From: Candidatus Dojkabacteria bacterium
GTDB taxonomy: Bacteria; Patescibacteriota; Dojkabacteria; SC72
Assembly (NCBI GenBank): GCA_050950165.1
Contig: JBMNHC010000001.1
Coordinates: 657,073-721,072 of the forward strand
Length of the DNA stretch: 64,000 nt
Direction of reading: 5' to 3'
In this document: piece after piece, positions 2,258-40,900 of the stretch
Numbering within the stretch: the stretch's first letter is position 1
Layout: every line of letters begins with the position of its first letter
Translations under genes and position numbers: made by a program
The notes under the pieces: model-generated
Told to the model about the DNA's origin: nothing
The model's input: the letters and a program-made list of their open reading frames with translations, nothing else
Databases searched by the model: none

Positions 2258-2295
2258 AAAACATCCCTAATTTTTGTATAATATATATAGAGAGG

Positions 2296-2959: not shown

Positions 2960-3880
2960 TTATTTAGAAGGTATTGTATACACACAATCTATCTTAAAAT
3001 CTCTCTTTAGGGCATTTCCTTTCTTACAGAGAACACTCCATATATTTTTGTATGACTCTACTTCTTTGTTATTAAGCCTCTTATATTTCGAAAGATTATA
3101 CCCATATGAAATCATGTCTGCTAATTCCAACCCTAAATACTTAGCTCTCTTGTTTGGAAAAGAGATACTGTATATCGAATCTTTTAATGCCACTGCAAAG
3201 GAAGTTCTTGTTCTTTTATCACCCTTCTTTTTCTCATTGAAAAACTGTTCTGTATATCTAAGTATTCTTTCTCTATTAGGTGATGTTTCAAAACAGATCT
3301 CAAATTCCTTAATATCCATTTTCTTCTTTTTAACATAATCAGTTACATATTTCTTGAGAATTGTATAATATGCTATTTCCAATGGATATTGTTTGTTAAT
3401 ATCTTGAAACTTACTCTTCTTTATTACATCTAAAACCTCATTGATTGTTTTTTCTTTAAAATTTTCAATTGAAAGTCCACTTCTTTGCCAAATAGCTTTT
3501 GCTTCAGAGAATGTAGTATAGAAGGGGTTTTTAGGTGAAGTAGTAGGGACTGAAGATAGGAGGGCTCCTTTATCTACTATTACAGTAATATATCCAAAGT
3601 CTAGAGTTTCTAAATAGGGGGTAAGTTCTTGTATAAATCCTATTTCTTTCTTAGTAGGTTTCCAAAATAGTTCTTGTGAATGTATTGGTTCTTCATTTCC
3701 AAAATGTTTCAATTTTAATCGATAATAATATGTTGCTAGATTTTGAAACTCAATGTTTTTTGCAATTACACCAGTCAAAATAAAAAATGGTCTTTGATCG
3801 TTAAGGGAAGCAACACCACTCTCATCGAAATATATGGTATTTCTACTAATATTGTTTCCTTTGTTCTCTGCTTTTCCCAT
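2960..3880 (-). CDS. DUF3800 family protein.
   Basis: The N-terminus, IYFDESG, is the DUF3800 signature. The downstream hairpin ggggttgac-agg-gtcagcccc at about 2924..2945 is a likely terminator. Confidence 0.6.
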   Translation of the reverse strand: MGKAENKGNNISRNTIYFDESGVASLNDQRPFFILTGVIAKNIEFQNLATYYYRLKLKHFGNEEPIHSQELFWKPTKKEIGFIQELTPYLETLDFGYITVIVDKGALLSSVPTTSPKNPFYTTFSEAKAIWQRSGLSIENFKEKTINEVLDVIKKSKFQDINKQYPLEIAYYTILKKYVTDYVKKKKMDIKEFEICFETSPNRERILRYTEQFFNEKKKGDKRTRTSFAVALKDSIYSISFPNKRAKYLGLELADMISYGYNLSKYKRLNNKEVESYKNIWSVLCKKGNALKRDFKIDCVYTIPSK

Positions 3881-5752: not shown

Positions 5753-6344
5753 AATAATTAGATAGTCTTCTCAAATAGATATTGATATCAATATTAGGAT
5801 ACTTAATTTTTAATTTAGATAGATTATCAAAATCTAAATCTTTATTAGGTTTTAGATATACCTGATTAACATCATAAATATCATTGTAGGAGCTATTAAT
5901 AATTGAACAATTCTTTAATTTTACTTTTTTAAGTAAATTCTTATCATTAGATTGTAATAGTATAATTGGTTTATATCCTAAGCTTATATGAAATGGAACT
6001 CCTTCATAAGTAGAGGATGCAAAGATATATTTTTTAATGTTGGAAAATTCTGTTAATTCTCTCTCAAACTTTTTAACTAGACTCTTACCTACTCCTTTTC
6101 TTCGATATTCTTTATCTACAGCGATTCCTCTCCCTATACATATATCATTATCAATATATCCTAGCTTTATCCCTATGATATTGTCTTTAGTATCTTTTGC
6201 AACTAAGAAGATACCTGAATTAGAGTTAAGTCTTTTAGTAAACTCTTTTTTGTTTATAAAGGGTCTTTTACCTAGATATTTATTATGGAAGTTTACAACG
6301 AGATTAATCTCATCTATTTGCATTTCGGATATTTTATATCCCAT
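5718..6344 (-). CDS. GNAT family N-acetyltransferase.
   Basis: Acetyl-CoA binding motif A: GIAVDKEYRRKGVGKSLV. Confidence 0.7.
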   Translation of the reverse strand: MGYKISEMQIDEINLVVNFHNKYLGKRPFINKKEFTKRLNSNSGIFLVAKDTKDNIIGIKLGYIDNDICIGRGIAVDKEYRRKGVGKSLVKKFERELTEFSNIKKYIFASSTYEGVPFHISLGYKPIILLQSNDKNLLKKVKLKNCSIINSSYNDIYDVNQVYLKPNKDLDFDNLSKLKIKYPNIDINIYLRRLSNYYEVQNTPCISQ

Positions 6345-6420
6345 ATTGTATTTTAATACCTTTCTATGACAGAGTGTCTAAACTAAGAGAAGACACTCTG
6401 TCAATTTTCTTTTACTAATC

Positions 6421-7893
6421 CTACTCTGCTTGTACAACTTCAGGTAATTGTAACTTCTCAAATGTATTATCTGGCAATATTCTGTAATACCCTGATCCCT
6501 CTGGTCCATATACACTCCAAGAGTTAACAGGAACATTGTATGTTTGTCCTGTACTTGGTGAAGTTACCATCTGATACCCTCTCATTCCCTCTAACCAATT
6601 ATCACCAACTGCATTTGCTAGAGACTGTGAATATGTACTACTTTGAGCAGTCATTGTAGCTCTTGTATTTTCAATAGGGTTAATTATTGGAAGTAATGTA
6701 TTCTTTCTCATCATCATATTCATATCAACGAAGTCAAAACTATCTTGTATCTTCTGTAAATCACCTTTTACATTTTCCCAATTCTCAGCTATTGTCATCT
6801 GCCCAAACCCATAAGCTGATGCATACTTAGTCTCACCAGCAGAGTATGGAGGCTGATATACTCCTACAGTTACTTTACCTAGGATAGGGATCCCTTGCAT
6901 TTTACCACTAAGATCGAATTCCTGTGCACTATATCCTAATATCTGAGATGGTAATACAGGACCGTCTGTTAATGTAATATTTGTTATTTCTTTAATCTGT
7001 GAGAACATCTCTTCTGCCCAAGTTCTAGGTGTATATTCACCTTTTAATTCTGTAGTGTGCATATAGCTAAGTACTGTTCTTTGATCAGATTTTATTATCT
7101 GAATGAAATCTTTTTGCTCGTTTTCAACAGCGTAATCAGAAGGTTTATCTAGCTGGAAGTACTTTCCCTTGTGTGTCTTAAAACCTTCAGGAACTTGCTT
7201 CTCATCAGGTTCTTGAGTTTGCTCTGCTAGTAAAATGTCGTCTGTAAGTACTCTTGTTCTTGCAAAACATCCAGAAATTTCCTTTAAGAGACTTTCTCTC
7301 TCTTCAAAGACCTCCGTTGGTGCCCAATATACTTTAAATGTAACAAAATCTTTTGATTTAGAAACAAGCATCTTTCCTTTTATATTGTATCCATTAATTG
7401 TTGCTGTAACATCTGCATAAGCTTCGTCCTCTGATTCTTCTAACTCTACAATATCCTGCATCTGAAAGGTCCCTTCTCCCTCTTCAGTTGTTTGTTGTAA
7501 AATTGTAGAAAATGTATTTAAGATATCTTGTTTAGTTAATTCCTGTTGTAATTTAGCAGTATAAATGAGTACTGCTGTTGTATTTGTTCCGTCCTCCATT
7601 ATAGAGACTGTTCCATTATCAAGAGCATAGAACCATCCATTTGGAACTCCAATACTAAAAGCACTCTCAGGATACTCTATCTTTGTTAATGTACAGTTTG
7701 GATTATCATTCTCTACAGTCTCAGCATAATTCTCTATTTTAGGCTTCCCTATTCCTAAATCTTTAACAAAATCCTTAACAGATTCTGTTCTAAGAAGAAA
7801 TACTAGGAGTATTAAGAGTACTAAAATTATGCAAGAGAGGATAATAGATTTCTTATGATTGGAAAAGAAATCTTTAAAAGAAAAATTATTCAT
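6421..7893 (-). CDS. Hypothetical membrane-anchored protein, paralog A: one N-terminal TM helix and a large extracytoplasmic domain.
   Basis: N-terminus MNNFSFKDFF plus a hydrophobic helix. Conserved blocks ENDNPNCTLTKIEYPESAFSIGVPNGW and a C-terminal TSPSTGQTY.VP.NSWS.YGPEG.GYYR. It is a tandem paralog of 8006..9457. Confidence 0.6.
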   Translation of the reverse strand: MNNFSFKDFFSNHKKSIILSCIILVLLILLVFLLRTESVKDFVKDLGIGKPKIENYAETVENDNPNCTLTKIEYPESAFSIGVPNGWFYALDNGTVSIMEDGTNTTAVLIYTAKLQQELTKQDILNTFSTILQQTTEEGEGTFQMQDIVELEESEDEAYADVTATINGYNIKGKMLVSKSKDFVTFKVYWAPTEVFEERESLLKEISGCFARTRVLTDDILLAEQTQEPDEKQVPEGFKTHKGKYFQLDKPSDYAVENEQKDFIQIIKSDQRTVLSYMHTTELKGEYTPRTWAEEMFSQIKEITNITLTDGPVLPSQILGYSAQEFDLSGKMQGIPILGKVTVGVYQPPYSAGETKYASAYGFGQMTIAENWENVKGDLQKIQDSFDFVDMNMMMRKNTLLPIINPIENTRATMTAQSSTYSQSLANAVGDNWLEGMRGYQMVTSPSTGQTYNVPVNSWSVYGPEGSGYYRILPDNTFEKLQLPEVVQAE

Positions 7894-8005
7894 ATCGTTT
7901 AAAGATATAAAATTAAGACATTAATTAATGATAGCAGATATTTGAGTCATGTAAAGCCTAATAAATTCTCCTGCTATCTTAAGGTTATTAAACATATTCA
8001 TATAA

Positions 8006-9457
8006 TTACTGTAACTTCTCTAACGAATTGTTTGGTAATTCTCTGTAGTATCCTGGTCCTTCTGGTCCATATGAACTCCAAGAGTTAAGTGGAACATCAT
8101 ATGTTTGTCCTGTACTTGGTGAAGTTACTGTCTCATACCCTCTCATACCCTCTGCCCAGTTCTCGCTAGACTCATCACTCATAGAAGATGAATAGGTACT
8201 ACCTTTAGATGTAACTGAAGACCTTGTACTCTCCATAGGTCGATTTGATGGTAGTAATGTATTCTTTCTTGTTGCACCAATATCAGTAATGGTAAAACTG
8301 TCTTGCATCTTTTGTAATGTAGCTTTTACACTTGTCCAATTTTCAGGCGTTGAAATCTGTATAGCCCAGAAAGCAGATGAATACTTAGTTCCAAATCCAA
8401 AGTATGGAGCTTGATACACTCCTACAGTAACTTTTCCTACAACGGAAATACCAGAGAGATTTCCAGTAAAGCTAAATTCTTGTACACTATGCCCTGATAT
8501 TTGAGAAGGTAGTTTAGCACCATTTGTTAATTTTAAATTTTGAATTTTTGCAAACTCAGGAAGTGCTTTCTGTGCCCAAGATCTAGGAGTATATGCACCT
8601 TCAAATCCAGTAGCATATGCATAGCTAAAACCTGCTTTACCATCAGTTCTAGTTAAATCAATACCGCTATCTGTCTCTCCTGTAACTTGGAAATTAGATG
8701 GCTTATCTAACCTAAAATATTTTCCTTTGTATGTTTGAAAACCTGCAGGCGTTTGTTCTCTCTTTGAATCTTTGTTTTTTGCTGCAAGTAAAACGTCATC
8801 GGTAAGAACCCTAGTTCTTGCAAAGCACCCACAGATATCCTTTAAGAGACCTTCTTTCTCTGCATAGACTTTAACTGGTGCCCAATATGATTTAAATGTA
8901 ACAAATTCTCCAGATTGAGATACAGACATTCTCCCTTTTATATCATATCCATCAATTTTAGATACAATATCAGCATTTGCTTCATTCTCTGATTCTTGTA
9001 TATTTTGTATATCAAAAGTACCATTTGAAGCTTCAATTGTTCGTTTAAAAATTGTAGAAAATGCTGTTAAAAATTCTTTCTTTGTTAAATCTTTCTTTAA
9101 TTTCGCAGTATACAAGAATACTGCAGTAGTATTTGTTTGATCTTCCATTATGGAAACAGTCCCGTTATTAACCTCATACAACCATCCATTTGGAACTCCA
9201 ATACTAAATGCACTCTCAGGATACTCTATCTTTGTTAATGTACAGTTTGGATTATCATTTTCTACAGTAGCAGAGTAGTATCTATTCTCAGAACTTTCTT
9301 TTTCTGGATTACTACCACTGTTTTTTATAACACCCTTAAAAGAATCAGTTAAAAAAAAGGTAAGTAAGAGTACAATGGTAAGGATTAATATTGTTGAGAT
9401 AATGATTATAACTTTTTTATATTTTGTAAAGAAATCTTTAAAAGAGAAATTGTTCAT
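8006..9457 (-). CDS. Hypothetical membrane-anchored protein, paralog B.
   Basis: Same N-terminus and conserved blocks as 6421..7893. Stretches of about 70 to 90 nt are near-identical at the DNA level (e.g. 7650..7720 vs 9200..9270; 6505..6595 vs 8068..8158). Confidence 0.6.
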   Translation of the reverse strand: MNNFSFKDFFTKYKKVIIIISTILILTIVLLLTFFLTDSFKGVIKNSGSNPEKESSENRYYSATVENDNPNCTLTKIEYPESAFSIGVPNGWLYEVNNGTVSIMEDQTNTTAVFLYTAKLKKDLTKKEFLTAFSTIFKRTIEASNGTFDIQNIQESENEANADIVSKIDGYDIKGRMSVSQSGEFVTFKSYWAPVKVYAEKEGLLKDICGCFARTRVLTDDVLLAAKNKDSKREQTPAGFQTYKGKYFRLDKPSNFQVTGETDSGIDLTRTDGKAGFSYAYATGFEGAYTPRSWAQKALPEFAKIQNLKLTNGAKLPSQISGHSVQEFSFTGNLSGISVVGKVTVGVYQAPYFGFGTKYSSAFWAIQISTPENWTSVKATLQKMQDSFTITDIGATRKNTLLPSNRPMESTRSSVTSKGSTYSSSMSDESSENWAEGMRGYETVTSPSTGQTYDVPLNSWSSYGPEGPGYYRELPNNSLEKLQ

Positions 9458-9535
9458 ATTATTTAGAACATAAAATTAGGGGTTTTAAAATAATAGCAGA
9501 TATTCATATAATGTAAAACTACTGTTTGAAAACTT

Positions 9536-11179
9536 TTAACTCTTTGCTACTAAAGCAAATCTCTCTATCATATCCCTATTCATATTCAATGAATTTGGAA
9601 GTTGCTCCCCTATTCTGTCAACCCATCTACCTTCTAAAAGATGAATGTTCTTAATCTCACTTACACTCTCTCCAACACTCATATACAGGTTATCTAGAAT
9701 ATCTCTACCTTCTCTTGCAGATTTTAAAATAGTTTCCTGCATAGATTTACTAACAGAATATTTACCAAAATCACCAATGAATGTATTTGATAAAAATTCT
9801 TTTAAGTATGACGTTGTGATAGAGGTAGTAGGTAATATACCGTCATTAGTCCTTATACCACTTAATACAACTTTCGGTTTAACAGTTCTATCAAAGCCTG
9901 CAGAGAGTCTAAGATAGTCTAAAGTATTACTGTCAATATTTATTGTTTTTAAATATTCCAATACATTATCTACCTTACTCTCAAATGAAAATACCTCTTC
10001 TAGACTACTACCGTTTCTTACTTGTGGATATTTGAATATATCACTAATCTTTCTAGAAATATCGTTATGGATATTTCTCTCTCCTACAATCTCCTTTATA
10101 CCATCCTCTGGAAAAATCCTATCTATATCTTCAGCTGTATACTCCTTCTTAACCTCATACTCTAGATTGTAGTCATACTTAAGGAGATACTTTATCTCAT
10201 TGTACAAAACTATTCCTAATATCGGTTCATCTTTAGCAAACTCTCCAATCCATATTCTAAGATTTCTCCCTATTCTGTTCTGTTCCTTTGTGCTTTGTGT
10301 ATTCATTCTCTCTTTAAGAGCGTTAGCCATCTCTCTAGCTATCTCTGTATGTACTAGCTTCTCAGGCTCATATTGACCAGGGAGAGTGATAACTTCGTTA
10401 GTAGAGAGAACAAAATCATATTTCGATGATTTCATACCCTCTTGGTGTTTTTTCTGACCTAACTCTATTTTATAAAACGAGGAGGTAGAAAATTTGTCTT
10501 CAATGAGAAGTTTTAAAGCCAAAATACTATCAAAAGAGTGCTTCTGAATAGAATGCCCATCATATGATATCCTCTCAGGATTATCTAAATATCTCTGGAA
10601 ATAGTTTTGCATCTTTGATATCTCTCCTCTCTCTTCGGATAGTCTAAGAGCATATTCTAACTTCTTAGAGCGATATATCGGTATTTCAAATCCATTCTCT
10701 TGTAAGATAGGGGTACCATCTGCATATCTATATATCTTTTTTCTTTTTGCATCTGGTCCTTTCTCATACTGTAAGTATCTAGCTTCCTCTTCAGTACTAT
10801 TTATGTGAGAAAGGTCAGGTTTAAGTATTCCATATGATAGATCATTTTTTCTTACAAATATCATATCTCCATCAAATTTAACACCTTTTGTATATCTGAG
10901 GTACTCTTCTGTAACGATAGTGACACCACGAGATCTGTATATGTGTGTATTTACGAGAGCTTTACTAACTTCATTACTATCTATACCCTCTATTCTATTA
11001 ATATCTATACTCTCTGTTTGATATGTTTGGGCTCCTAAAACTAAGGGTAGAGGGAGATTTTCTGAAATAATTTGGTTAAATTGATCAACTTCTAAAGAGT
11101 CAGAGCCAGGTGTTACCAATGATATTGTAGTATCAAGTTTTTCTTCTGTTTGTGTTAAAGAGTCAACATCTACATCCAT
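9536..11179 (-). CDS. Hypothetical 547-aa protein with no TM segment and no recognisable domain; first gene of the cluster with the two paralogs.
   Basis: Long uninterrupted ORF, co-directional with and 78 nt upstream of paralog B. Confidence 0.55.
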   Translation of the reverse strand: MDVDVDSLTQTEEKLDTTISLVTPGSDSLEVDQFNQIISENLPLPLVLGAQTYQTESIDINRIEGIDSNEVSKALVNTHIYRSRGVTIVTEEYLRYTKGVKFDGDMIFVRKNDLSYGILKPDLSHINSTEEEARYLQYEKGPDAKRKKIYRYADGTPILQENGFEIPIYRSKKLEYALRLSEERGEISKMQNYFQRYLDNPERISYDGHSIQKHSFDSILALKLLIEDKFSTSSFYKIELGQKKHQEGMKSSKYDFVLSTNEVITLPGQYEPEKLVHTEIAREMANALKERMNTQSTKEQNRIGRNLRIWIGEFAKDEPILGIVLYNEIKYLLKYDYNLEYEVKKEYTAEDIDRIFPEDGIKEIVGERNIHNDISRKISDIFKYPQVRNGSSLEEVFSFESKVDNVLEYLKTINIDSNTLDYLRLSAGFDRTVKPKVVLSGIRTNDGILPTTSITTSYLKEFLSNTFIGDFGKYSVSKSMQETILKSAREGRDILDNLYMSVGESVSEIKNIHLLEGRWVDRIGEQLPNSLNMNRDMIERFALVAKS

Positions 11180-21683: not shown

Positions 21684-22526
21684 ATGAAGTTTAAAAAAGG
21701 AAAGAAGTATCTATGTATGTTAGCTCCTTCATTTGTTTCAGTATATGAATACCCAGATATTGTGTACAGATTAAGGGCATTAGGATTTGATAAAGTAGTA
21801 GAAGTAACATTTGGTGCTAAAATGACTAATCTCTCTTACTACCAAATATTAAAAGAGAAAAATGATAGAACCTGGATCTCTTCTCCTTGCCCTACCCTTG
21901 TCAATGTAATTAGAGCTAAATATCCTCATCTGCTTCCTAATCTAGTTCCTGTTCACTCCCCTATGGGTAGTATGGGCTTAATATGCAGAAAGTTTTTCCC
22001 AGGATATGTAAACATATTTGTAGGTCCCTGCTTAACTAAAAAGATAGAGGCTAAGGAGTTGGATAGTATAGATGAGGTATTAACATTTAAAGAGTTAGAT
22101 GACCTCTTTATCAAACACAATATTCCTGAAAAAATAGAGGACTCTAAGTATTGTGCTACTTTCGATAAGTTCTACAACGACTACACCAAGATATATCCTC
22201 TCTCAGGAGGTCTCTCTGATACACTTGCATATCACCATATCTTAAAAAAGAAGGATATACTGGTTATGGAAGGTATGGATAACATCATTAAAATCTTAGA
22301 TGGATTTAAAGATGGATATTACAAGAATTATAAATTTTTAGATATCCTTACCTGTAAGGGTGGTTGTATCAATGGTCCTAGTATTAACTATCGACACTCT
22401 ATTAACGAGAGAATTAAGCGAGTTAGAAAGTATAGAAACTTTGCAGCTAGGTATGAGAAAGACTTAGGCAAGAGTGGTAAAAAAGCAGATGCAGAAGGTA
22501 TAGATTTTGGAAGAGAATTTGTGTAA
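21684..22526 (+). CDS. [FeFe]-hydrogenase large-subunit H-cluster domain-like protein. It is domain-only and lacks the proton-relay Cys.
   Basis: Three H-cluster motifs in order: SSPCP (cf. TSCCP), VGPCLTKKIEAKE (cf. MPCxxKxxE) and TCKGGCINGPS (cf. ACxGGCxxGGGQ). The N-terminus LAPSFVSV...ALGFDKVVEVTFGA matches the start of the H-domain. Confidence 0.6.
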   Translation: MKFKKGKKYLCMLAPSFVSVYEYPDIVYRLRALGFDKVVEVTFGAKMTNLSYYQILKEKNDRTWISSPCPTLVNVIRAKYPHLLPNLVPVHSPMGSMGLICRKFFPGYVNIFVGPCLTKKIEAKELDSIDEVLTFKELDDLFIKHNIPEKIEDSKYCATFDKFYNDYTKIYPLSGGLSDTLAYHHILKKKDILVMEGMDNIIKILDGFKDGYYKNYKFLDILTCKGGCINGPSINYRHSINERIKRVRKYRNFAARYEKDLGKSGKKADAEGIDFGREFV

Positions 22527-22551: not shown

Positions 22552-23001
22552 TTGTTGTACATGAATGATTTTATGAAAGTAGCACTTGATGAAGCTAGAA
22601 AAGGAATGAAAAGAGGACACGGTGGTCCATTTGGTGCAGTTATTGTTAAAGATGGAAAGATAATTGCAAAAGGCCATAGCAGAGTATTAAAAGAAAAGGA
22701 TGCTACATCTCATGCTGAAATTAATGTGATAAGGAAGGCTAATAAGAAACTTAAATCATATGACCTTTCTTCCTGTGAGATATATACTACTGGCCAACCA
22801 TGCAAAATGTGTGAAGCAGCTATTAACTGGGCAAAAATTAAAAAAGTATACTTTGGAAATACATATAGAGATGCACTAAATATGGGATTTAATGACCAAA
22901 CAGGTAATAATGATAAAGTAAAATATACTAGATTAGATAGTACAGAGACAGTAAAATTAGTTGAGGAGTGGAATTCATTGCATAAGAAGAAGCTTTATTA
23001 A
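22552..23001 (+). CDS. CDA-fold zinc deaminase, closest in pattern to guanine deaminase GuaD / TadA-like enzymes.
   Basis: GGPFGAVIVKDG, HAE zinc/catalytic motif and PCKMCEAAI. Confidence 0.75.
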   Translation: MLYMNDFMKVALDEARKGMKRGHGGPFGAVIVKDGKIIAKGHSRVLKEKDATSHAEINVIRKANKKLKSYDLSSCEIYTTGQPCKMCEAAINWAKIKKVYFGNTYRDALNMGFNDQTGNNDKVKYTRLDSTETVKLVEEWNSLHKKKLY

Positions 23002-23062: not shown

Positions 23063-24694
23063 ATGTCTAAATACATTTTTGTATCTGGAGGAGTAATTTC
23101 TGGAATCGGTAAAGGAATTTCTGCAGCTTCCATTGGTGTTTTGCTTAAATCATATGGGTATAAGATTACCATGTTAAAAGCAGATCCATATCTAAATGTA
23201 GATGCTGGTACTATGAACCCTTCTGAACATGGTGAAACTTTTGTATTAGAAGATGGTTTTGAAACAGATATGGATATCGGTAGTTATGAAAGGTTTGTTA
23301 ATGAATCTTTCTCTCGTCCCAACTCTATGACATGTGGTGCGGTACTTGAGAAAGTAATTAAGGATGAGAGATCTTTAGCATATGATGGTAAATGGGTTAG
23401 TCTTGATTACCATGTTCCAAATGAAGCTATCTCATGGATTAAGAGTGTTGCTAAAAGCAGTAAAGCAGAAATTACCATTGTAGAGATAGGGGGTACAGTA
23501 GGAGAGATTGCTAATGGACTGTTTTTGGAAGTGAATAAGATTATGAAAATTGAAGCTCCTAATGATGTTATACATGTTCATCTCTCATATCTTCCAGTAC
23601 CAAATACTTTAGGAGAAATGAAAAGTAAGCCTGTTCAAGTTTCAACACAACTTCTTAATACACACGGAATACATCCAGATTTTCTAATAGCAAGATCAGA
23701 GTATGAATTAGATCGCATTAGAATAGAAAAACTTTCTAGATACTGCTATGTTCCTGTTAACCATATTGTCTCTGCAGTTGATACAGATTGTATATATGAT
23801 GTTCCCGTTAACTTTAAGAGAGCAAATTTAGGAATAAATATTCTTAAGAAACTTAATCTAAAGCCTAAGAAAACATCTATTATAGATAAATGGGTTAAGA
23901 AAACAGAGAGGATGAAAAAGATTAAAAAAGAGATAAATATAGGGATAATTGGAAGAAGTCCTAAAAGTGGTAAATTTGATTTAAAAGACTCGTATGTTTC
24001 TGTTTTAGAAGCTATTAATCATGCTAGCTGGGAGAAGATGTCCAAACCAAATATTCACTGGATTGAAGCAGAAGGGTTTAGATCGAAAGAGAAATTAAGA
24101 GAAAAACTTTTAGAGATGGATGCTATAGTAGTTCTCCAAGGCATTGGAAAAGAAGATATGGAAGGTAAGATAAGAGCAGTAGAGATTGCAAGAGAGAGTA
24201 AACTCCCTTTCTTAGGTCTTGGATACGGTTTTCAAATTGCAGTAGTAGAATATGCTAGAAATGTATGTAAGATAAAAGATGCTACTACACAAGAGATAGA
24301 CAGTAAGGGAAGTTTAATAATGTATAGAAGAGATACTACAGATGGGAGAAGGTTAGGGAGTTATCCTTGTAAAGTAAAGAGTGGGTCTGTTTTAGAATCT
24401 CTGTATAAAAAGTATAAGAGTTCTCTTTTTAATACCCAGCCTACAGTATTAGAAAGGCACAGAAACAGTTATGAGTTTAATAATGAATATAAAAATATTT
24501 TGGAAGATAAGGGCTTGATATTCTCCTCTATAAGTACAGATAGAAAGTTAGTAGAGGCTGTAGAGATTCCTAAAGAGAAACACCCTTTCTTTATTGCTAC
24601 TCTCTATCATCCTGAGCTTAAAACTAGATTTATTCTACCTCATCCAATATTTATGGGTTTTATAGAGGCAGCCATTAAGAGATCTAAGAGATAA
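23063..24694 (+). CDS. pyrG: CTP synthase. The glutamine amidotransferase nucleophile Cys is substituted.
   Basis: Canonical N-terminus MSKYIFVSGGVISGIGKGI and synthetase domain. The GATase motif reads GLGYGFQ instead of G-x-C-x-G-x-Q; the His/Glu pair (YHPEL) is retained. Confidence 0.9.
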   Translation: MSKYIFVSGGVISGIGKGISAASIGVLLKSYGYKITMLKADPYLNVDAGTMNPSEHGETFVLEDGFETDMDIGSYERFVNESFSRPNSMTCGAVLEKVIKDERSLAYDGKWVSLDYHVPNEAISWIKSVAKSSKAEITIVEIGGTVGEIANGLFLEVNKIMKIEAPNDVIHVHLSYLPVPNTLGEMKSKPVQVSTQLLNTHGIHPDFLIARSEYELDRIRIEKLSRYCYVPVNHIVSAVDTDCIYDVPVNFKRANLGINILKKLNLKPKKTSIIDKWVKKTERMKKIKKEINIGIIGRSPKSGKFDLKDSYVSVLEAINHASWEKMSKPNIHWIEAEGFRSKEKLREKLLEMDAIVVLQGIGKEDMEGKIRAVEIARESKLPFLGLGYGFQIAVVEYARNVCKIKDATTQEIDSKGSLIMYRRDTTDGRRLGSYPCKVKSGSVLESLYKKYKSSLFNTQPTVLERHRNSYEFNNEYKNILEDKGLIFSSISTDRKLVEAVEIPKEKHPFFIATLYHPELKTRFILPHPIFMGFIEAAIKRSKR

Positions 24695-24697
24695 ATA

Positions 24698-26806
24698 CTA
24701 CTTTTTAATATACGCTTTTATATCAACAACAACTGCTCTACTCTCAGTTATCATTACTGGGTTCATATCTAGTGTAAATATCTCTGGATATGTGGTTAAC
24801 ATTTTTTGTACCTTCTCAATACACTCTATTAGAGCTTCTCTGGCTAGTGCTGGTTTACCTCTGTATCCTGCTATCAGTTTCGATATTTTAGTTTTATCCA
24901 ATATCCTACCTATATTTTCTATACTCTCTGGTAGTAAAAATTTCTCAATATCACTATGTATCTCTGTATATATACCCCCTTGCCCTATTGCAATGAGATG
25001 CCCAAATCCCTCTCCTGTCTCTTCATATACCTGACTATCTCCGTCTCTGTTAGTTCCAATAAAGAATTCTGCTTTTGAGTCTATCATCTCCTGTATTAAT
25101 ATATTAGGAGAGGTAGTTCTTGTAATCTTTGATATATTTCCAACTAATTCTTCAAATTTAGCCTGAAATTCAGATACAGTTCTAATATCTAAGAAAAGGG
25201 CTTTGTAATCTGTTTTATGTGCTAAATCCTTAGATGTTGCTTTTATAGCAACAGGGAAGTTTTTAGTAGCAAACTCGACTGCTTCCTCATAGTTAGCAGT
25301 AATTAATTGATTAGGCATATCAAGATGAAACTCTTTAGATATCTTCTCTACAATATCATCTGGTAGTACCTGTAGCTCATCTGTTAATAACTCCTCTATC
25401 TCTTTTCCATATTTTCTTCTCTTCTTTAATTCAGAGATATCTCTTAATACAAAACTTTTTCTCTTACTTTGGTACTCTGTAAGTTTTGAGATTAGTTTAA
25501 CAGTATCCTCAATATTGTTAGAGAAATACAAACCGTATGCTCTTAGTATCTTGTTACCATCTTCTATCTCTTTTCCTCCTAAAAAGCACGCAAATATAGG
25601 CTTAGAACTTTGATTCTGTAAATCTACAATTACTTTTGCTACACCAGTAATATCTGAAACAAGCTGTGGTGTTAAGATTAGAAGTAAAGTGTCTACATTC
25701 GTGTCATCTAGAAGTATTTTCATCGCCATCTCATATCTATCAAGAAGAGCATCTCCTAGTATATCGATAGGGTTTTTTACACTGGCAAAGGGAGGTAAAT
25801 TTTTAAGAAGTTTCTCCTTACTCTTCTCCCCTATTTCGGCAACTTCTAGATTAAAAGCTTCTACAAAATCTACAGCCATTATTCCTGGACCACCTGCATT
25901 AGTAAGTATTGCTACTTTTTTACCTTTAGGTAATTTTTTTTTAGAGAGAACTTTTAGAGTATCAAACATCTCTTCTGAGCTCTCTACTTTTATTAAATTG
26001 GCTTTCCTGATTGCAGCTAAAGTAGTATCGTAGGATGAGGTAAGAGACCCAGTATGTGAAATTATTGCTTCAGAGGCCCTCTGAGAGCTTCCTGGAGCTA
26101 TTATTACAATCGGTTTATCTACCTTACTAACAATCTCAATGAAGTCTTTTCCATCACTAAACTCTTCTAAGTAAAGAGCAATGGAATCTGTATTTTTATC
26201 TCTCTGTAGATACTCTATTAATTCATTTTCGATGATATCAGCCTTATTTCCAATGGATATTACTTTTGAGAAACCTACATTGTCCTTAGATGCCATATCT
26301 AAAATAGCTGTAATGAAAGCTCCCGACTGAGAGATGAATGCAGTAGTACCATCACCAGGATTAGATCTTGCAAATGAGAGATTAATATTTTCACTATTGT
26401 TTATAAATCCAAGAGTATTCGGTCCTATTAATCTAATACCTGCACTCTTTAGTTTCTTTGCAATATCTTCCTCTAACTCTTTACCCTCTTGACCTGTCTC
26501 TTTAAATCCTGCAGATATGATTATTACACTACCTACTTTCTTTTCAATACACTCATCTATTACTGAACTAACAAACTGAGAAGGTATTACAATACATACC
26601 ATATCTATACTATCTTTAATATCTAGTACTGACTTAAAACACTCCTTACCTTCTATATCACTATACTTAGGATTAACAGGATATATTTTACCTGTATATC
26701 CTCCTTCCATTAGGTTATGAAATATTACAGAACCTATTTTCTCTTTCTCTTTAGATACACCTACTATGGCTATACTCTTTGGTGAAAACAGATTATCTCT
26801 TATCAT
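24698..26806 (-). CDS. acd: Acetyl-CoA synthetase (ADP-forming), fused alpha/beta (acetate--CoA ligase, NDP-forming).
   Basis: N-terminal CoA-binding domain (KSIAIVGVSKEKEKIG...YPVNPKY), succinyl-CoA-synthetase-like fold and a C-terminal ATP-grasp. Confidence 0.85.
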   Translation of the reverse strand: MIRDNLFSPKSIAIVGVSKEKEKIGSVIFHNLMEGGYTGKIYPVNPKYSDIEGKECFKSVLDIKDSIDMVCIVIPSQFVSSVIDECIEKKVGSVIIISAGFKETGQEGKELEEDIAKKLKSAGIRLIGPNTLGFINNSENINLSFARSNPGDGTTAFISQSGAFITAILDMASKDNVGFSKVISIGNKADIIENELIEYLQRDKNTDSIALYLEEFSDGKDFIEIVSKVDKPIVIIAPGSSQRASEAIISHTGSLTSSYDTTLAAIRKANLIKVESSEEMFDTLKVLSKKKLPKGKKVAILTNAGGPGIMAVDFVEAFNLEVAEIGEKSKEKLLKNLPPFASVKNPIDILGDALLDRYEMAMKILLDDTNVDTLLLILTPQLVSDITGVAKVIVDLQNQSSKPIFACFLGGKEIEDGNKILRAYGLYFSNNIEDTVKLISKLTEYQSKRKSFVLRDISELKKRRKYGKEIEELLTDELQVLPDDIVEKISKEFHLDMPNQLITANYEEAVEFATKNFPVAIKATSKDLAHKTDYKALFLDIRTVSEFQAKFEELVGNISKITRTTSPNILIQEMIDSKAEFFIGTNRDGDSQVYEETGEGFGHLIAIGQGGIYTEIHSDIEKFLLPESIENIGRILDKTKISKLIAGYRGKPALAREALIECIEKVQKMLTTYPEIFTLDMNPVMITESRAVVVDIKAYIKK

Positions 26807-26808: not shown

Positions 26809-27660
26809 CTATTGAAATCTAGATAAAATATTTTTAATATCGTAATTCTTAACCTCATCAACTAGTTCTGTTTTTTTCTTCTTCCTATTCTCCAAACTAT
26901 TCAGAAAGTCTGGTCTATTCCTGTTCTGGTATATAACGCCGGTATATATCTTCTCTGTGTCTTTAACAACTGCTACAGCCTCACTAATGGTTTGTTTAGC
27001 GGTAGTATGTGCAATTCTACTACTAAACCACTCAGAATTTGCTTCTTTATTAAATGTTGGACATATCTGCATAATCTCTACTACACTTAAACCTTTATGT
27101 ACTATCGCCTCCTTCATTATCTCAGTTAACTGTTTAGGATCTCCACTGTATCCTCTTGCAAAGAATGTAGGGTTAAGGCTTAATACTAGCTCTCCAATAT
27201 TAATACTTCCTTCTGGTTTACCATCAGGAAAAGCATATATCGGTTTCTTCTCTCTTGTAGTTGCTGTAGCTTGTCCAGTAGTTAATGCAAAATTTTGATT
27301 ATTATGTATTAAAACCATAATATCATAGTTAGATCTAATTGCATGAATTAGATGATCTATTCCCTCATGTAAAACTCCCCCATCTCCAATATCTGCAACT
27401 ACCTTCATTTTACTGTTTGCTAAGTATGCACCTGATGCTAAAGCAATGGACCTTCCATGAAGACCTTTAATTCTAAATCCTTCAATATCATCAGCACCGT
27501 TACCGTTACAACCGATATCAAAGACTAAAACAACTTCGCTAGGAGATAGGTTAAGGTCCACAAATGCCTGTTTGAGAGAGTGATGAATAGCGAAATTACC
27601 ACATCCAGGACACCATGTATTTTTCTCTTTTGTATTAAAATCTTCTACCTTAACTTTCAT
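26809..27660 (-). CDS. korB: 2-oxoacid:ferredoxin oxidoreductase, beta (TPP-binding) subunit.
   Basis: CPGCGNFAI, GCNG and the TPP-binding GDG region. Two nt downstream of the alpha-subunit gene. Confidence 0.85.
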   Translation of the reverse strand: MKVKVEDFNTKEKNTWCPGCGNFAIHHSLKQAFVDLNLSPSEVVLVFDIGCNGNGADDIEGFRIKGLHGRSIALASGAYLANSKMKVVADIGDGGVLHEGIDHLIHAIRSNYDIMVLIHNNQNFALTTGQATATTREKKPIYAFPDGKPEGSINIGELVLSLNPTFFARGYSGDPKQLTEIMKEAIVHKGLSVVEIMQICPTFNKEANSEWFSSRIAHTTAKQTISEAVAVVKDTEKIYTGVIYQNRNRPDFLNSLENRKKKKTELVDEVKNYDIKNILSRFQ

Positions 27661-27661: not shown

Positions 27662-29359
27662 TTAGTTTTTTAAAAAATCTAAAATATCTTCAACAAAGAA
27701 AGGTCTAGCATCAAACTTTAGTAATTTTTTCTTAAACTCATATCCACTCTCTTTTCTAATTAACTCTCCAAACTGTCCACCCTGATTATTCTCAATCAGT
27801 ATGAGATCTTTTTTGTTTGAATCTAACTCTAATATCTTTTCATATCGTAGAGGGAAGAGATATTGATAGTAGAGGAAAGCGATATCTTCTCTCTCTTTCA
27901 TAGCATCTAGTACTGCATTTTTAGCTGTACCAAATCCAACAAAAACACTCTTTGCATCTTTCGAACCGTAGTATATTGGCTGAGGTATATCTCTCTGTAA
28001 CCCTACTAGCTTTCTCATTCGCTTCTCTGACATTGCAGCGATATCTTCTGCTACCTCTGTAGTAGCTCCATCAGGTGTGTGCTCATCACTATTCGCTAAG
28101 AATGTTTTCTTTCCCTTTTGAGGTATCCATCTAGGAGATATTCCACTCTCAGTTATCTCATATCTCTCTTTCCCTTCTTTAAGATGTCTCTCTACTTTTA
28201 GAGCTTTAGGTAGTTGTTTAATATTAAAGAGTGCTTCTGCAGACTGTTTCTCTGTTAGAAGAATTACAGGTAGTTGATATTTTTCAGATATATTGAATGC
28301 TTCTTGTATTAACTCATATGCATCATATGCAGTAGAACAACTAAGAACAACTCTTGGAAAATCTCCATGACCAGAGTAGAGAGCTGCATCTAGGTTGTCT
28401 GTTCCACTCCAAGTAGGAACTCCTGTTGCTGGTCCAGCTCTCTGTCCTAGCACTACAACCAAGGGAGTTTCAGTCATACCAGCACACGATATTGTCTCTG
28501 TCATTAAATCAAAACCACCTCCAGAGGTTGCAGTAAATGCTCTTGTTCCCATATACATAGCTCCCATTACTAACTGAATTGCAGTAATTTCACTCTCTGC
28601 CTGCTTAACCACAATACCTGTTTCCATATATGTTTTACCAAAAGTATCTAGGATAGATGTAGAAGGTGTCATTGGATATGCAAAATATGCTCTACAACCT
28701 GCAGAGATTGCACCTAGGACAATAGCGTCATTTGCTGTAAGTAATTTACTCTTACTCCAACTTTTTTCTTTATCAATCTTGCTAATCTCTTCTCCATATT
28801 TTTTCTCTTTCTCAAATGAATACCCTGCTTTTAAGCATCGTATCTCTGCATCCATATCTATATTTTTCTTCTCAAACGTCTTCTTAACAACCCTCTCTAA
28901 CTCTTTAAGATCAAACTCCGCTATTGACCAAAGATATGCAAGTAATACAGCACTAGCCATGATTGGAGGAGCATTGTTTTCCTTCGCTATACTAAGTGTA
29001 TCTAAGTAAACAACAGTTATTTTCTTCTTGTATATATATTCTCTTTCTTCATCTGTGAAATCAAAATCCAAGATATTGTGAACAATTAATCCTCCCTTTT
29101 TAACACCAAAAAGATATTGATGTAGAGGCTCTGAAGAGAGAGAGGCTAAGATATTGTAGTTTTTGGATGAAGAGAGAATCTCTTTGTCACTAAAATCTAT
29201 CTGATATGACGCAAACCCTCCTTTTATAACGGAAGGATACTCTCTGTATGCAAAGACATGGTATCCAATATTTTTAATAGATTTAGCAAGAATTTCACCT
29301 AGGGTATTAATTCCTTGACCTGACTCTCCTGCGAATTTAATTGCAAATCGATGAGCCAT
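27662..29359 (-). CDS. korA: 2-oxoacid:ferredoxin oxidoreductase, alpha subunit with fused gamma-like N-terminal domain.
   Basis: Domain order and size (565 aa). Tight operon: korA, 1 nt, korB, 2 nt, acd. Confidence 0.85.
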   Translation of the reverse strand: MAHRFAIKFAGESGQGINTLGEILAKSIKNIGYHVFAYREYPSVIKGGFASYQIDFSDKEILSSSKNYNILASLSSEPLHQYLFGVKKGGLIVHNILDFDFTDEEREYIYKKKITVVYLDTLSIAKENNAPPIMASAVLLAYLWSIAEFDLKELERVVKKTFEKKNIDMDAEIRCLKAGYSFEKEKKYGEEISKIDKEKSWSKSKLLTANDAIVLGAISAGCRAYFAYPMTPSTSILDTFGKTYMETGIVVKQAESEITAIQLVMGAMYMGTRAFTATSGGGFDLMTETISCAGMTETPLVVVLGQRAGPATGVPTWSGTDNLDAALYSGHGDFPRVVLSCSTAYDAYELIQEAFNISEKYQLPVILLTEKQSAEALFNIKQLPKALKVERHLKEGKERYEITESGISPRWIPQKGKKTFLANSDEHTPDGATTEVAEDIAAMSEKRMRKLVGLQRDIPQPIYYGSKDAKSVFVGFGTAKNAVLDAMKEREDIAFLYYQYLFPLRYEKILELDSNKKDLILIENNQGGQFGELIRKESGYEFKKKLLKFDARPFFVEDILDFLKN

Positions 29360-37506: not shown

Positions 37507-37950
37507 ATGAGGTGTCCATACTGTGCATGTACAACTTCTAAAGTTGTAGACAAAAGAGATAATAGTGAGGACTTTTCTACTAGAAGAAGAAGGCAGTGTT
37601 TAAGGTGCGGTAGAAGATATACAACATACGAGAGGATTGAAAGGATAGATGTTGTAGTGATTAAAAGAGATGGTTCTTTAGAAAATTTTGACTGTGAGAA
37701 GTTAAGAAAAGGGATTAAGAAAGCTGTTGATTTGGATAAGATTACTGAGTCGGATATTGAGCTGTTTTGTGAGGAGGTAGAGAGAAAGGTAATGGTTAGT
37801 CCAAATCCACTAACTACAGCAGATATTGGAAATATGGTGTTGGAGTGGTTAAGGACTCAAGATCCACTAGCATATATGAGGTTTGCTAGTGTGTATAAAA
37901 AATTTGAAACTTTAAAAGATTTAAAAGAAGAATTAGAGAAATTAATTTAA
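37507..37950 (+). CDS. nrdR: Transcriptional repressor NrdR.
   Basis: Zinc ribbon CPYC...CLRC plus an ATP-cone. Confidence 0.9.
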   Translation: MRCPYCACTTSKVVDKRDNSEDFSTRRRRQCLRCGRRYTTYERIERIDVVVIKRDGSLENFDCEKLRKGIKKAVDLDKITESDIELFCEEVERKVMVSPNPLTTADIGNMVLEWLRTQDPLAYMRFASVYKKFETLKDLKEELEKLI

Positions 37951-37960: not shown

Positions 37961-40900
37961 GTGAAAACTGTTCATTTCAAGGTTAAAAAAAGAGATGGAA
38001 GGTTAGTACCGTTTGAGATAGAAAGAATTGAGACAGGGATATTTAAAGCTGCCGAAAGTGTTGGAGGTGATGATAGAGAGAGAGCAAAAGAGGTAGCAAG
38101 TGAGGTACTTAAGAGATTAACTAAGAAGCATAAGAAAGAGCTTTTCATTACAACTTCTGATATTGCTAAGTGCGTTAAAGAGACTCTAAAGGATATGGGG
38201 CATGGTAAGACTGCTACTGCTTTTGAGTTGTTTGTGGATCTTAACAACAAGGTAAAGAATATTAAATCGTTAATAGATGCTGAATCCTTAATTAAGGGAT
38301 ATATTAGAGAAGAGGATTGGAGAGTTAAAGAGAACAGTAATATGGCATACTCTTGGCAAGGGTTAAATAACCATATCTCTACTTCAGTTCAGGCTAATTA
38401 CTGGCTCTATACCATATATCCTAAGGTTGTTTCTAATGCTCATATAAATGCAGATTTACATATTCATGATTTAGGTATGATTGCAACATATTGCTGTGGA
38501 TGGGATTTACAGGATCTTTTGCTTAGAGGTTTTACAGGGGTACCAGGAAAGATCTCTTCTAGTCCTCCTAAGCACTTCTCTGCTGCATTGGGACAGTGTG
38601 TTAACTACTTGTATACCCTTCAGCATGAAGCAGCAGGGGCACAGGCTTTTTCTAGTTTTGATACTCTACTTGCTCCATTCATACGATATGACAAATTAAG
38701 CTACAAAGAGGTAAAACAGAAGATACAGGAGTTTCTTTTCAATATGAATGTTCCTACTAGGGTAGGATGTCAGACTCCTTTTACTAATATCACCATGGAT
38801 CTAGTACCTCACGGTATGTTAGCTAAAGAAAATGTCATCATTGGTGGTAAGCCACAGAAAGAGAAATATGGAGATTTTCAAAAAGAGATGGATATGCTAA
38901 ACAGAGCGTTTTGTGAGGTGATGATGGAGGGAGATGCACAAGGCAGACTCTTTTCATATCCCATTCCTACATACAATTTAACTAAAGATTTTGATTGGGA
39001 GAGTGATAAATACAAATCTTTGTGGGAGATGACAGCTAAATATGGTATCCCCTACTTCTCTAACTTCATTAATTCCGATATGAATCCTGATGATGCTAGA
39101 TCTATGTGTCCTTTAGCAGGAGATGAGAGGGTGTTAGTTAGGTCATCAAGAGCAAGAGGTTTAGAATTTTCTACTCTCAAAGGGATATATGAAGGAGACT
39201 TAAAAGAGCAAGAGTATGAGATATTTAGTAATGGGGGTTTCGTAAAAGGGAAGTTTGCTAAATTCAAAAACCAGAAGATGATAGAGGTTGTTCTTTTAAA
39301 TAACCATAGTATTAAGATGTCGGTTAATCATTTGAATTTTGTTTTAGAAAACAAGAAATCAGATATTAAAGAATTAACTGGTTCAGAACTTACTAAGGGT
39401 ATGTATCTTCCATATTCACTTAATCAGTATGAAGGGAGAGGTGGAGATGAAGAGTTAGGATATTTTGTAGGAGCGTTTGCAGGTAATGGGTCTTTTAATG
39501 AGGAAAGCTCTGTACTCTTTTCTCTCCCTATTAATCAAAAAAAGAGTGTTGCAGAGAAACTAATTAAGATATCTGAGAGATACTTTGGTGCTAGTTATAC
39601 AATTAAAGAGAACAAGAAGAGTAAACTTCTCATATTGGAAATATTCTCAAGAGCTGCTGTAGGTTTGTGTAAAGATTTTGTAAGTGGCAAAGGAAGAGAG
39701 AGAGTCTACACTTCTAAATTGTATGAGATGTCTAAAGAGTTTAGATTGGCAGTAATTGAAGGTCATTTAGATATAAATGGTGGGAGGAAGAATAGGATAT
39801 ATACGTCTTCATTCAAGATGGTTGAGTCTTTAAATATGTTAACAGCTACTTTAGGTACTTCAACTGCAATATATGAAGAAAGGGGGAAGAAAGGATTAGA
39901 CTTTTCTGTTTTGATATATGGGTTATGCAGAGAGAAGTATGGGGATTTCTGGTTTAAAAAAGATGGTATGTTGTGGATGAAGATTAAAGATATTAAAAAG
40001 ATTCCTAACTCTACTGCTTACTGTTTTGAGGTAAAAAACAATATTCCCATGTTTACAGTTGGTGGGAGTGGTATTCTAACTCACAACTGTAGGCTTAGAT
40101 TGGATAATAGAGAGCTAAGAAAGAGAGGTGGGGGTTTGTTTGGTGCAAATCCACTAACAGGAAGTATTGGGGTTGTAACTATTAACATGCCTAGGATTGG
40201 GTATCTAGCAAAAAATAGAAGGGATCTCTTTAAGAGGATTAATAATTTGATGGATATTGCTAAAAGGAGTTTGATGATTAAACGGTCCGCTATAGAGAAA
40301 TATATGGAGATGGGACTCTATCCATACTCTAAGTTCTACCTTAATAATATTAAAAAGAGATTTGGTGAATATTTTAAGAATCACTTTAATACAATTGGGA
40401 TATTAGGTTTGAATGAGGCGTTAATAAATTTCTTAGGTAAGGATATTACTACTAAGGAAGGAAGAGAGCTTGGCTTAGAGATTATGGACCATATGAGAGA
40501 GAGATTAATGACATATCAGATTGAGACTAATCAGCTATTCAATCTAGAGGCTACTCCAGGAGAGAGTACAACTTATAGATTTGCTAAGGCAGATAAGGCT
40601 AAATATGGAGATAAGATCATTGCGGCTTCTGATTTTGGCAAAAATCACTGTTCTGCTCCATACTACACTAACTCTTCTCAGCTTCCTGTAGGCTTCACAG
40701 ATGATGTATTTGAGGCTTTAGATATGCAGGATGACTTCCAGTGTAAATATACAGGAGGAACGGTTCTACACATCTTCTTAGGTGAGAGAATGCCATCAGC
40801 TAGGAGTGTAAGAAATTTTGTTAGAAAGGTTGCAGAAAACTACAAATTACCCTACTTCTCCATCACACCTACTTTTAGTGTATGTCCCAAACATGGATAT

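Follow-up and report, generated by a model that had tools for sequence, protein, structure and literature searches.

The hyd gene, located at 21684..22526 on the forward strand of a 64,000-nucleotide stretch of DNA from Candidatus Dojkabacteria bacterium (contig JBMNHC010000001.1; the whole stretch is referred to as the window), was assigned to an ultraminimal, group-E-type [FeFe] hydrogenase consisting of a stand-alone H-cluster domain (H-domain). The product is read as an H2-evolving electron sink for acetate fermentation, with a probability of roughly 60%, and is probably a bacterial (Dojkabacteria/WS6) member of the group E-containing clade of stand-alone, loop-trimmed H-domains. This reading builds on an H-domain fold, retained cluster ligands, a conserved [2Fe] pocket, purifying selection, linkage to genes for 2-oxoacid:ferredoxin oxidoreductase (OFOR) and ADP-forming acetyl-CoA synthetase (ACD), and an anaerobic host. 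The assignment of the gene itself draws on the open reading frame (ORF), Pfam, AlphaFold2 (AF2), Foldseek and substitution-rate results that are given below.

Fold and H-cluster pocket of the hyd product

The ORF starts with ATG and specifies a protein of 280 amino acids (32.3 kDa, pI 9.2, seven cysteine residues). A preliminary description had proposed a 280-residue H-domain protein with three H-cluster motifs in the right order, and both frame and motifs were confirmed at the codons given below. The proposal had been staked on a significant match to the Pfam model Fe_hyd_lg_C (PF02906); this model was found as the sole domain (E=1.3e-39; 136.8 bits, cutoff 22.1), with hyd residues 24-232 aligned to profile positions 28-245 of 245. 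Membership in the [FeFe]-hydrogenase H-domain superfamily is confirmed far beyond chance. The absence of accessory Fe-S domains, which had also been proposed, was borne out: no Fer4 domain was detected in the product by Pfam, and the ferredoxin-type motif CxxCxxCxxxCP was found neither in the product nor anywhere across the 64-kb window.

The NCBIfam models for group A, group A6 and the Clostridial enzymes gave scores of 78, 78 and 69 bits against cutoffs of 406, 765 and 900 bits, respectively. The best NCBIfam hydrogenase model was that of group B1 (TIGR04105; 130.7 bits, cutoff 450 bits), which was matched at profile positions 217-458 only; with a score below this cutoff and no N-terminal ferredoxin-like domains, the product falls outside group B. 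When PDB sequences were searched with phmmer, the top match was CpI (8cjy, E=3.5e-17). The AF2 model, computed from a 28-sequence alignment, reached a mean predicted local distance difference test score (pLDDT) of 94.9 and a predicted template modelling score (pTM) of 0.92, and its comparison with the PDB by Foldseek gave 73 matches at E<=1e-3. The best 50 of these 73 were all [FeFe] hydrogenases, with query-normalised template modelling (TM) scores of 0.72-0.79 to CpI, HydA of HydABC, CbA5H and DdH; the Cys299 variant structures 6gly and 6glz were among the Foldseek matches. The structure prediction suggested in the preliminary description thus returned a confident H-domain fold with the cysteine ligands in register, their superposition on HydA resting on the sequence alignment and the fold match rather than on measured distances.

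The ratio of non-synonymous to synonymous substitution rates (dN/dS) was 0.04-0.08 against Dojkabacteria orthologs, with dS saturated, and shows that the gene is under strong purifying selection. The exact protein was also found on a 28-kb Logan contig that is identical to the matching part of the window.

Alignment with CpI places the cluster-binding residues in three motifs on the forward strand. The L1 motif SSPCP (21879..21893) carries P68 at the position of CpI C299 and C69 at that of C300, a ligand of the [4Fe-4S] part of the cluster ([4Fe-4S]H); the L2 motif PCLTKKIE (22026..22049) provides C116, K119 and E122 for C355, K358 and E361; and the L3 motif CKGGCING (22353..22376) provides C224 and C228 for C499 and C503, the latter being the bridging cysteine. 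In the phmmer alignment, TSCCPGW, VMPC and MACHGGCVNG of CpI are paired with SSPCPTL, VGPC and LTCKGGCING, so that each of the four H-cluster cysteine ligands of CpI (C300, C355, C499, C503) has its counterpart (C69, C116, C224, C228). The S323-P324 pair of CpI is present as S92-P93. An H-domain-type N-terminus had been claimed as well, and an APS motif (A14-P15-S16) was indeed located at 21723..21731 (+). Alignment conservation assigns it to the CN-ligand environment of the [2Fe] subsite; we take it to correspond to CpI A230-P231-S232, the stretch lying outside the phmmer alignment to CpI. A14 and P15 are invariant and S16 is present in at least 90% of the 28-sequence alignment, and all three residues occur in 64 of 64 WS6 and 16 of 16 DPANN sequences.

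The proton-relay cysteine C299 is replaced by Pro68 in the CpI alignment, in agreement with the earlier reading of a proline at the first cysteine of TSCCP. The remainder of the group-A proton pathway is replaced too, with Y52 for E279, V88 for S319 and I55 for E282, and with R286 falling within a deletion. Further changes in the pocket are M353 to G114 (two residues before C116), M497 to L222 and Q325 to M94. None of the marks of catalytic group A HydA was found, be it the relay cysteine of TSCCP, the residues E279/S319/E282/R286, the Met353/Met497 pair or a score above the NCBIfam cutoffs.

The residues that hold the cluster behave differently from those of the relay. Equivalents of A230/P231/S232, C300, S323/P324, C355, K358, E361, C499 and C503 show no variation among 64 Dojkabacteria and 16 DPANN orthologs, nor among the other minimal (H-domain-only) lineages and the sensory relatives described below. 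The 28-sequence alignment contains 15 invariant columns at a mean column identity of 41%, and most of those that could be mapped to CpI belong to the cluster pocket. Together with the dN/dS values, the invariance of these residues indicates a maintained functional pocket and not a relic.

The motifs xSPCP and [V/I]GPC were present in 120 of the 120 closest homologs, proline was found at the C299 position in all 64 Dojkabacteria orthologs from genomes, and not one minimal protein has a cysteine there. Judged from these alignments, loss of the relay cysteine is a trait of the whole clade and not of a single gene. In the sensory clade, position 299 is occupied by Pro (17/51) or Ala (23/51), position 353 by Gly (51/51) and position 497 by Leu (43/51), and Met at 325 and Tyr at the E279 position are common to the minimal and sensory clades; in the window protein this tyrosine is Tyr52 (21837-21839). 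Two further positions were recorded: Asn49 (21828-21830) recurs in 53 of 56 minimal versus 3 of 51 sensory proteins, and His91 is invariant only in Dojkabacteria, its place being taken by Asp in Nanoarchaeota.

Relatives and gene neighbourhood

The closest proteins share 63-84% identity, are all 268-299 amino acids long and in some cases bear the name of candidate division WS6. In a taxon-labelled scan of species-representative genomes, every relative with at least 55% identity (55-84%) belonged to Dojkabacteria; the 84% match lies on a 733,750-bp contig of HGW-Dojkabacteria-1, for which the source paper reports a closed genome of <800 kb. The next tier of the same scan consisted of Pacearchaeota, Woesearchaeota and Nanoarchaeota proteins (275-298 amino acids, 41-51% identity). 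Over 60 species-level Dojkabacteria genomes and hundreds of metagenome clusters contain an intact, full-length ortholog. Proteins of this kind have already received the routine annotation name [quoted passage not shown].

A phmmer search over 1.84 billion cluster representatives gave 2,353 matches, the best 30 or so of which are stand-alone proteins (250-316 amino acids, 34-56% identity); these are followed by proteins of 450-1,000 amino acids in which the H-domain begins at about residue 70. Ten of the larger proteins were scanned: all 10 carry N-terminal Fer4, eight carry the FeS domain PF04060, and seven have GGDEF, sigma-54 activator, His-kinase or PAS outputs added. By its domain composition, this architecture is that of the putative sensory groups C/D. 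A profile built from the remaining minimal lineages retrieved 2,001 proteins at E<=1e-20, with Absconditabacteria/SR1, Patescibacteria, Dojkabacteria, Nanoarchaeota and unnamed archaea among the source names. In one protein met in the searches (P0132, 4122 amino acids), at least seven H-domains of group-A type (TSCCA, MPC, MCEGGC) occur in tandem, the first six at a spacing of 444 amino acids; it resembles a transcript of the eukaryotic polyprotein type and has no connection with the window.

Group E was defined in DPANN archaea by Greening et al. (Cell 2024, PMC11216029), who introduced these "ultraminimal" [FeFe] hydrogenases as archaeal and as the smallest hydrogenases known. According to the same paper, they consist of the H-domain only (mean 286 residues) with condensed loops and a solvent-exposed H-cluster, retain the ligating cysteines but differ in the proton-transfer residues, and are sister to group C; OFOR genes are often adjacent to theirs, HydEFG is missing from most of their hosts, the closed Forterrea genome included, and in many DPANN hosts a group A1 or group E enzyme is the only hydrogenase (PMC11216029). 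The 33-kDa enzyme Fm of Ca. Forterrea multitransposorum was reported to bind one [4Fe-4S] cluster and [2Fe]adt, to adopt the Hox, HoxH and Hred' states, and to work in both directions, with H+ reduction favoured (PMC11216029). That screen covered archaea only; archaeal group E was called monophyletic, and the Candidate Phyla Radiation (CPR) occurs in the reference list only (PMC11216029).

One of the minimal proteins retrieved here (P0289) is very probably Fm, on circumstantial grounds: it has 286 amino acids, an archaeal neighbourhood (proteasome subunit, RadA) and a presence in 99 sample blocks. It shares 41% identity with the window protein over 276 residues. Its L1 motif reads ICGNCP, and it forms a clade with SR1/Absconditabacteria proteins at 99% bootstrap. 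The gene (6001-6861 of loci L088/L089) adjoins genes for a NifU-like protein and SufB/SufD/SufC and follows a TYW1 radical-SAM gene; no OFOR gene was found within 6 kb of it.

In neighbour-joining (NJ) trees, the minimal and sensory proteins are separated from group A with a bootstrap of 100, the Dojkabacteria/WS6 clade is monophyletic (96-100), and the sensory proteins are placed as the probable sister group of the minimal proteins. The window protein groups with the minimal proteins of Nanoarchaeota, Pacearchaeota and Woesearchaeota and with P0289 when trees are built from our own sequence sampling. Within the minimal proteins, the WS6 subclade is distinct (100% bootstrap) from the Nanoarchaeota and Fm/SR1 subclades. 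A deep Dojkabacteria/Patescibacteria branch (L059-L062; 55-59% identity) keeps SPCP. The phylogenetic placement suggested earlier thus led to prokaryotic minimal and sensory forms as the nearest relatives.

Among 346 minimal proteins, the L1 motif falls into the classes xSPCP (222 proteins, mostly Dojkabacteria), CxNCP (65 proteins) and SS[A/V/T]CP (Nanoarchaeota). Asn occupies position 299 in 65 of the 66 minimal sequences that have a Cys three residues before the ligand cysteine. This I-C-x-N-C-P subclade comprises P0289, P0125, P0128, P0276, P0279 and 61 others, including proteins of SR1/Absconditabacteria. The pattern suggests that the Cys/Asn pair is a displaced proton relay, absent in Dojkabacteria and Nanoarchaeota; in Fm it could serve as an alternative relay that Dojkabacteria lack. 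The P0128 gene (7713-8600 of locus L087) lies near genes of bacterial type (Mur ligase and ribosomal protein L9). Translation of this locus with table 11 does not yield the recorded P0128, and P0128 clusters with SR1 proteins, which is consistent with a UGA-recoded CPR lineage as its host.

Downstream of hyd, and about 2 kb away, the window holds an OFOR/ACD module on the reverse strand. ACD (24698..26806) is a fused alpha+beta protein of 702 amino acids with the Pfam domains CoA_binding, Succ_CoA_lig and ATP-grasp_5, which scored 509 bits against TIGR02717, slightly under the cutoff of 567. The OFOR beta subunit (26809..27660), which carries thiamine pyrophosphate (TPP) and a [4Fe-4S] cluster, was recognised by TPP_enzyme_C/PFO_beta_C and reached 230 bits with NF008820 and 228 bits with TIGR02177, both under cutoff. 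The 2-oxoacid:acceptor oxidoreductase alpha subunit (27662..29359; 565 amino acids, gamma-alpha fused; POR/POR_N) scored 498 bits with TIGR03710, above the cutoff of 483. A delta (ferredoxin-like) OFOR subunit is absent at this locus.

The linkage was followed by tblastn in 85 loci. In nearly all Dojkabacteria loci with sufficient downstream flank, hyd is followed within 1.5-10 kb by the convergent genes ACD-PORb-PORa, and the association persists though intervening genes come and go and upstream genes differ. Eight DPANN loci have hyd directly preceded by PORa and PORb, seven of them with all three genes on one strand; in two Nanoarchaeota loci (L076 and L082) porA and porB overlap by 4 nt and porB and hyd by 13-17 nt. 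Linkage in two domains of life with differing gene order points to a functional tie rather than to inherited synteny.

Between hyd and this module lie genes annotated as a TadA-like deaminase (22552-23001, +) and CTP synthase (23063-24694, +). The three genes probably form one transcription unit: no terminator-like site was detected between them in a sequence scan. In the same scan, promoter-like sites were no commoner than in shuffled sequence. The deaminase and CTP synthase genes are variably present, several loci (L034-L036 among them) having neither between hyd and ACD, and are therefore not regarded as a functional part of the module. The end of CTP synthase (24694, +) and that of ACD (24698, -) are separated by three bases, and no terminator-like hairpin was detected there.

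Elsewhere in the window (G+C 29-38%), genes for NrdR, NrdD, NrdG, thioredoxin reductase, LexA, MutL, UvrB and a type I restriction fragment were found. NrdD, the anaerobic ribonucleotide reductase (37961-40984, +; 1007 amino acids), is flanked by NrdR (37507-37950) and NrdG (41144-41824), and the presence of NrdD/NrdG marks the organism as an anaerobe. NrdD models match residues 7-392 and 707-994 of the protein, and the insertion of about 310 amino acids between them is possibly an intein or an inserted domain. A role at the cell surface or in adhesion is probable for an 807-residue protein (46667-49090, +) whose N-terminus resembles a signal sequence and which also contains a stretch very rich in Cys, one InlB B-repeat-like domain and five Ig domains of the Rha78A-like kind. 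Four large ORFs on the reverse strand (490, 483, 547 and 979 amino acids; 6421-11179 and 43032-45971) had no Pfam match at E<=1e-4. The stretch 7-3880 may be a defence-related corner; here a NucS/PDDEXK-like nuclease and a DUF3800 protein accompany a type I restriction R subunit, of which the C-terminal portion is present, the remainder lying beyond the start of the window.

Function of the hyd product

For the H2-evolving electron sink, the following scheme is proposed. OFOR would oxidise pyruvate or another 2-oxoacid to acyl-CoA and CO2, and ACD would turn the acyl-CoA into the acid and ATP. Low-potential electrons would be carried by a ferredoxin encoded elsewhere to the surface-exposed [4Fe-4S]H of the hyd product and discharged as H2 at the [2Fe] subsite; through this enzyme, a very small fermentative metabolism would vent its surplus electrons. 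The group-A relay Cys299-Glu279-Ser319-Glu282-Arg286 is unusable because all five positions are replaced; protons would arrive through water or the exposed pocket in a Cys-independent manner, probably with lower turnover. A separate ferredoxin is encoded in the Forterrea genome (Forterrea paper), and fermentative catabolism of nucleosides and pyruvate to acetate has been described in the Dojkabacteria and Forterrea papers.

Several findings weigh against this scheme. Pro/Ala 299, Gly 353, Leu 497 and Met 325 mark the pocket as one of the "sensory" type, and the group-A proton pathway is entirely gone. Variants of the group-A enzymes CpI and CrHydA1 in which Cys299 is exchanged for Ala or Ser are nearly inactive. 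Monophyly of all minimal forms was obtained in the full-data NJ tree, with a support of only 55% of replicates, and P0289, the probable Fm, belongs to the L1 class CxNCP, the grouping of WS6 with CxNCP proteins receiving just 5% bootstrap. Since the probable Fm differs in L1 class and belongs to a separate subclade, catalytic competence of the Pro-type pocket has to be extrapolated. Within group E, activity was described for Fm alone, the Nanoarchaeota enzyme Na being covered only for expression (PMC11216029). Neither OFOR nor ACD was detected within 10 kb of hyd in the deep Dojkabacteria branch L059-L062, where flank exists, nor OFOR within 8-10 kb in several other minimal lineages, P0128 and P0129 included, and a ferredoxin-like small ORF lies near hyd in only 1 of 86 loci.

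The maturases belong on the same side of the balance. As noted earlier for hydE, hydF and hydG, a scan of the 64-kb window revealed no HydE, HydF or HydG: its sole radical-SAM protein is NrdG (TIGR02495, 190 bits), and its sole HydF-like GTPase candidate is Obg (26 bits with the HydF model, cutoff 325). No HydE/G was found in 1.2 Mb of flanks from 90 loci either, in which the two radical-SAM ORFs of HydE/G size are TYW1 and a generic SPASM-type enzyme. Closed DPANN genomes with group E enzymes also lack HydEFG (PMC11216029).

A bolder form of the proposal does away with the ferredoxin. Delta-less OFOR and the hyd product would together act as a "2-oxoacid:proton oxidoreductase" (a minimal pyruvate hydrogen-lyase), with electrons passing directly from the [4Fe-4S] cluster of OFOR beta to [4Fe-4S]H; H-cluster assembly would not need HydEFG, proton delivery would not need a relay cysteine, and the module would have passed as a unit between CPR bacteria and DPANN archaea. 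The gene overlap in Nanoarchaeota, the linkage in Dojkabacteria, the lack of a nearby ferredoxin or maturase gene and the basic pI of 9.2 are compatible with such a complex, which we nevertheless hold to be improbable.

Two explanations other than an electron sink are considered unlikely, and equally so. In the first, the H-cluster is complete and the protein is a slow H2-responsive redox sensor or regulator, for example modulating OFOR/ACD by protein contact. In favour of a sensor, the pocket carries the very signature of the multidomain sensory clade, which is placed as the sister group; the group-A proton pathway is absent, and activity of Pro-type pockets is an extrapolation. Against a sensor stand the lack of an output or signalling domain, the lack of a conserved regulator gene alongside, and the translationally coupled porA-porB-hyd operon, which suggests stoichiometric metabolic coupling. 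Moreover, a group E enzyme is the sole hydrogenase in many DPANN hosts, so nothing catalytic would be left to regulate, and Fm is a competent bidirectional catalyst (PMC11216029).

In the second, no [2Fe] subsite is formed in vivo because HydEFG is missing, and the protein is a [4Fe-4S]-only acceptor or carrier of OFOR electrons or a Nar1-like Fe-S factor. The absence of maturases from the window and of HydE/G from the flanks fits this, as do the closed group E DPANN genomes without HydEFG (PMC11216029), the absence of a neighbouring ferredoxin gene (85 of 86 hyd/OFOR loci), an OFOR that has two subunits and no delta, and the position of the probable Fm gene beside SufBCD/NifU. However, the equivalents of K358, S232/P231, S323/P324 and C503 are invariant across bacteria and archaea at about 40% identity, and an empty pocket is hard to reconcile with the invariance of residues that have a role only for the [2Fe] subsite. 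In addition, Fm binds [2Fe]adt in a well-defined environment (PMC11216029), and Forterrea has a ferredoxin of its own.

Considerably less probable is an uptake enzyme, by which H2 from the partner community would be oxidised, ferredoxin reduced and OFOR run as pyruvate synthase. [FeFe] hydrogenases are reversible, Fm oxidises H2 at high potential, and the group C enzyme TmHydS prefers H2 oxidation (PMC11216029). Such a direction is opposed by the linkage with ACD, an ATP-yielding catabolic enzyme, by the bias of Fm to H+ reduction (PMC11216029) and by the fermentative, acetate-forming catabolism published for Dojkabacteria and Forterrea. A decaying remnant of a larger hydrogenase, as the short length and the loss of the catalytic cysteine and accessory domains might indicate, is effectively refuted by the dN/dS of 0.04-0.08, the invariant pocket, the confident fold prediction and the large number of intact orthologs in genomes and metagenome clusters.

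The preliminary description had left a choice between a minimal or non-canonical hydrogenase and a sensory protein similar to Narf or HydS. The former is favoured. A Narf-like protein was rejected: there is no N-terminal Cys cluster (a single cysteine, C11, precedes the H-domain), hosts and relatives are prokaryotic, and the [2Fe] pocket is conserved. The HydS alternative held in part, the pocket being the same; a fused sensor was rejected on the finding that the hyd product has no Fer4, PAS, GGDEF, kinase or sigma-54 module.

If the electron-sink reading is true, the hyd product supplies the missing electron sink of the ATP-yielding branch from pyruvate to acetate in Dojkabacteria, which are noted for their extremely reduced metabolism, and these bacteria are H2 producers in anoxic communities. 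An ultraminimal enzyme appears to be fixed in a whole CPR phylum, with related forms in SR1/Absconditabacteria. The occurrence of minimal forms in Dojkabacteria/SR1 and in DPANN archaea makes the family and its OFOR partner common to both ultra-small, host-dependent radiations, and the mixture of bacterial and archaeal subclades in the trees suggests exchange between CPR and DPANN. In the literature searched, no group E or ultraminimal hydrogenase and no [FeFe] maturase was found for CPR/Patescibacteria; papers on CPR deal with [NiFe] enzymes or use the term "Fe-Fe hydrogenase" in a generic sense only. Relative to that literature, the large monophyletic bacterial subclade, the fixed proline at the relay position, the cross-domain OFOR/ACD linkage and the apparently mixed clade are new. 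In place of the proton-relay cysteine, the clade offers natural variants (Pro, Ala/Val, Cys/Asn pair), and it would pose the problem of how an H-cluster is assembled without HydEFG in a closed genome of <800 kb.

Comparison with known hydrogenases

With the Nar1/NARF proteins, the hyd product has the Pfam family in common. Nar1/NARF proteins are eukaryotic factors of cytosolic Fe-S assembly that carry an extra N-terminal Cys cluster and are thought to lack the [2Fe] subsite.

The group A enzymes (CpI, CrHydA1, DdH) share with it the H-domain fold (TM about 0.78 on the query), the four cysteines and the Lys358/Glu361/Ser232/Pro324 environment. In contrast, identity is only 22%, and the window protein is about 80 residues shorter than their H-domain (280 residues versus 356-364 Foldseek columns), with a deletion of about 30 residues between CpI 425 and 465. 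The exchanges C299P, E279Y, S319V, E282I, M353G and M497L and the deletion of R286 set it further apart.

The sensory groups C/D (HydS, e.g., that of Thermotoga maritima) are the nearest non-minimal relatives. They share Ala/Pro 299, Gly 353, Leu 497, Met 325, Tyr at the E279 position and the lack of a group-A proton pathway, but carry N-terminal Fer4, PF04060 and output domains, of which the window protein has none.

The closest likeness is to the group E enzymes of DPANN archaea: a stand-alone H-domain of similar length (about 286 versus 280 amino acids) with condensed loops and no F-clusters, all ligand cysteines kept and the proton-transfer residues changed, a probable sister position to sensory group C, adjacent OFOR genes, and ultra-small, genome-reduced anaerobic hosts without HydEFG nearby. 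The Nanoarchaeota members are 41-51% identical to the window protein, and for the probable Fm the value is 41%. Differences are seen in L1, which here is xSPCP as opposed to CxNCP (Fm-like) or SS[A/V/T]CP, and in gene order, hyd being convergent to ACD-porB-porA in the window and part of a porA-porB-hyd operon in Nanoarchaeota. The host is a CPR bacterium (Dojkabacteria) and not a DPANN archaeon, which is a property of sampling rather than a mechanistic criterion, and the known categories of hydrogenases are left unchanged by the finding.

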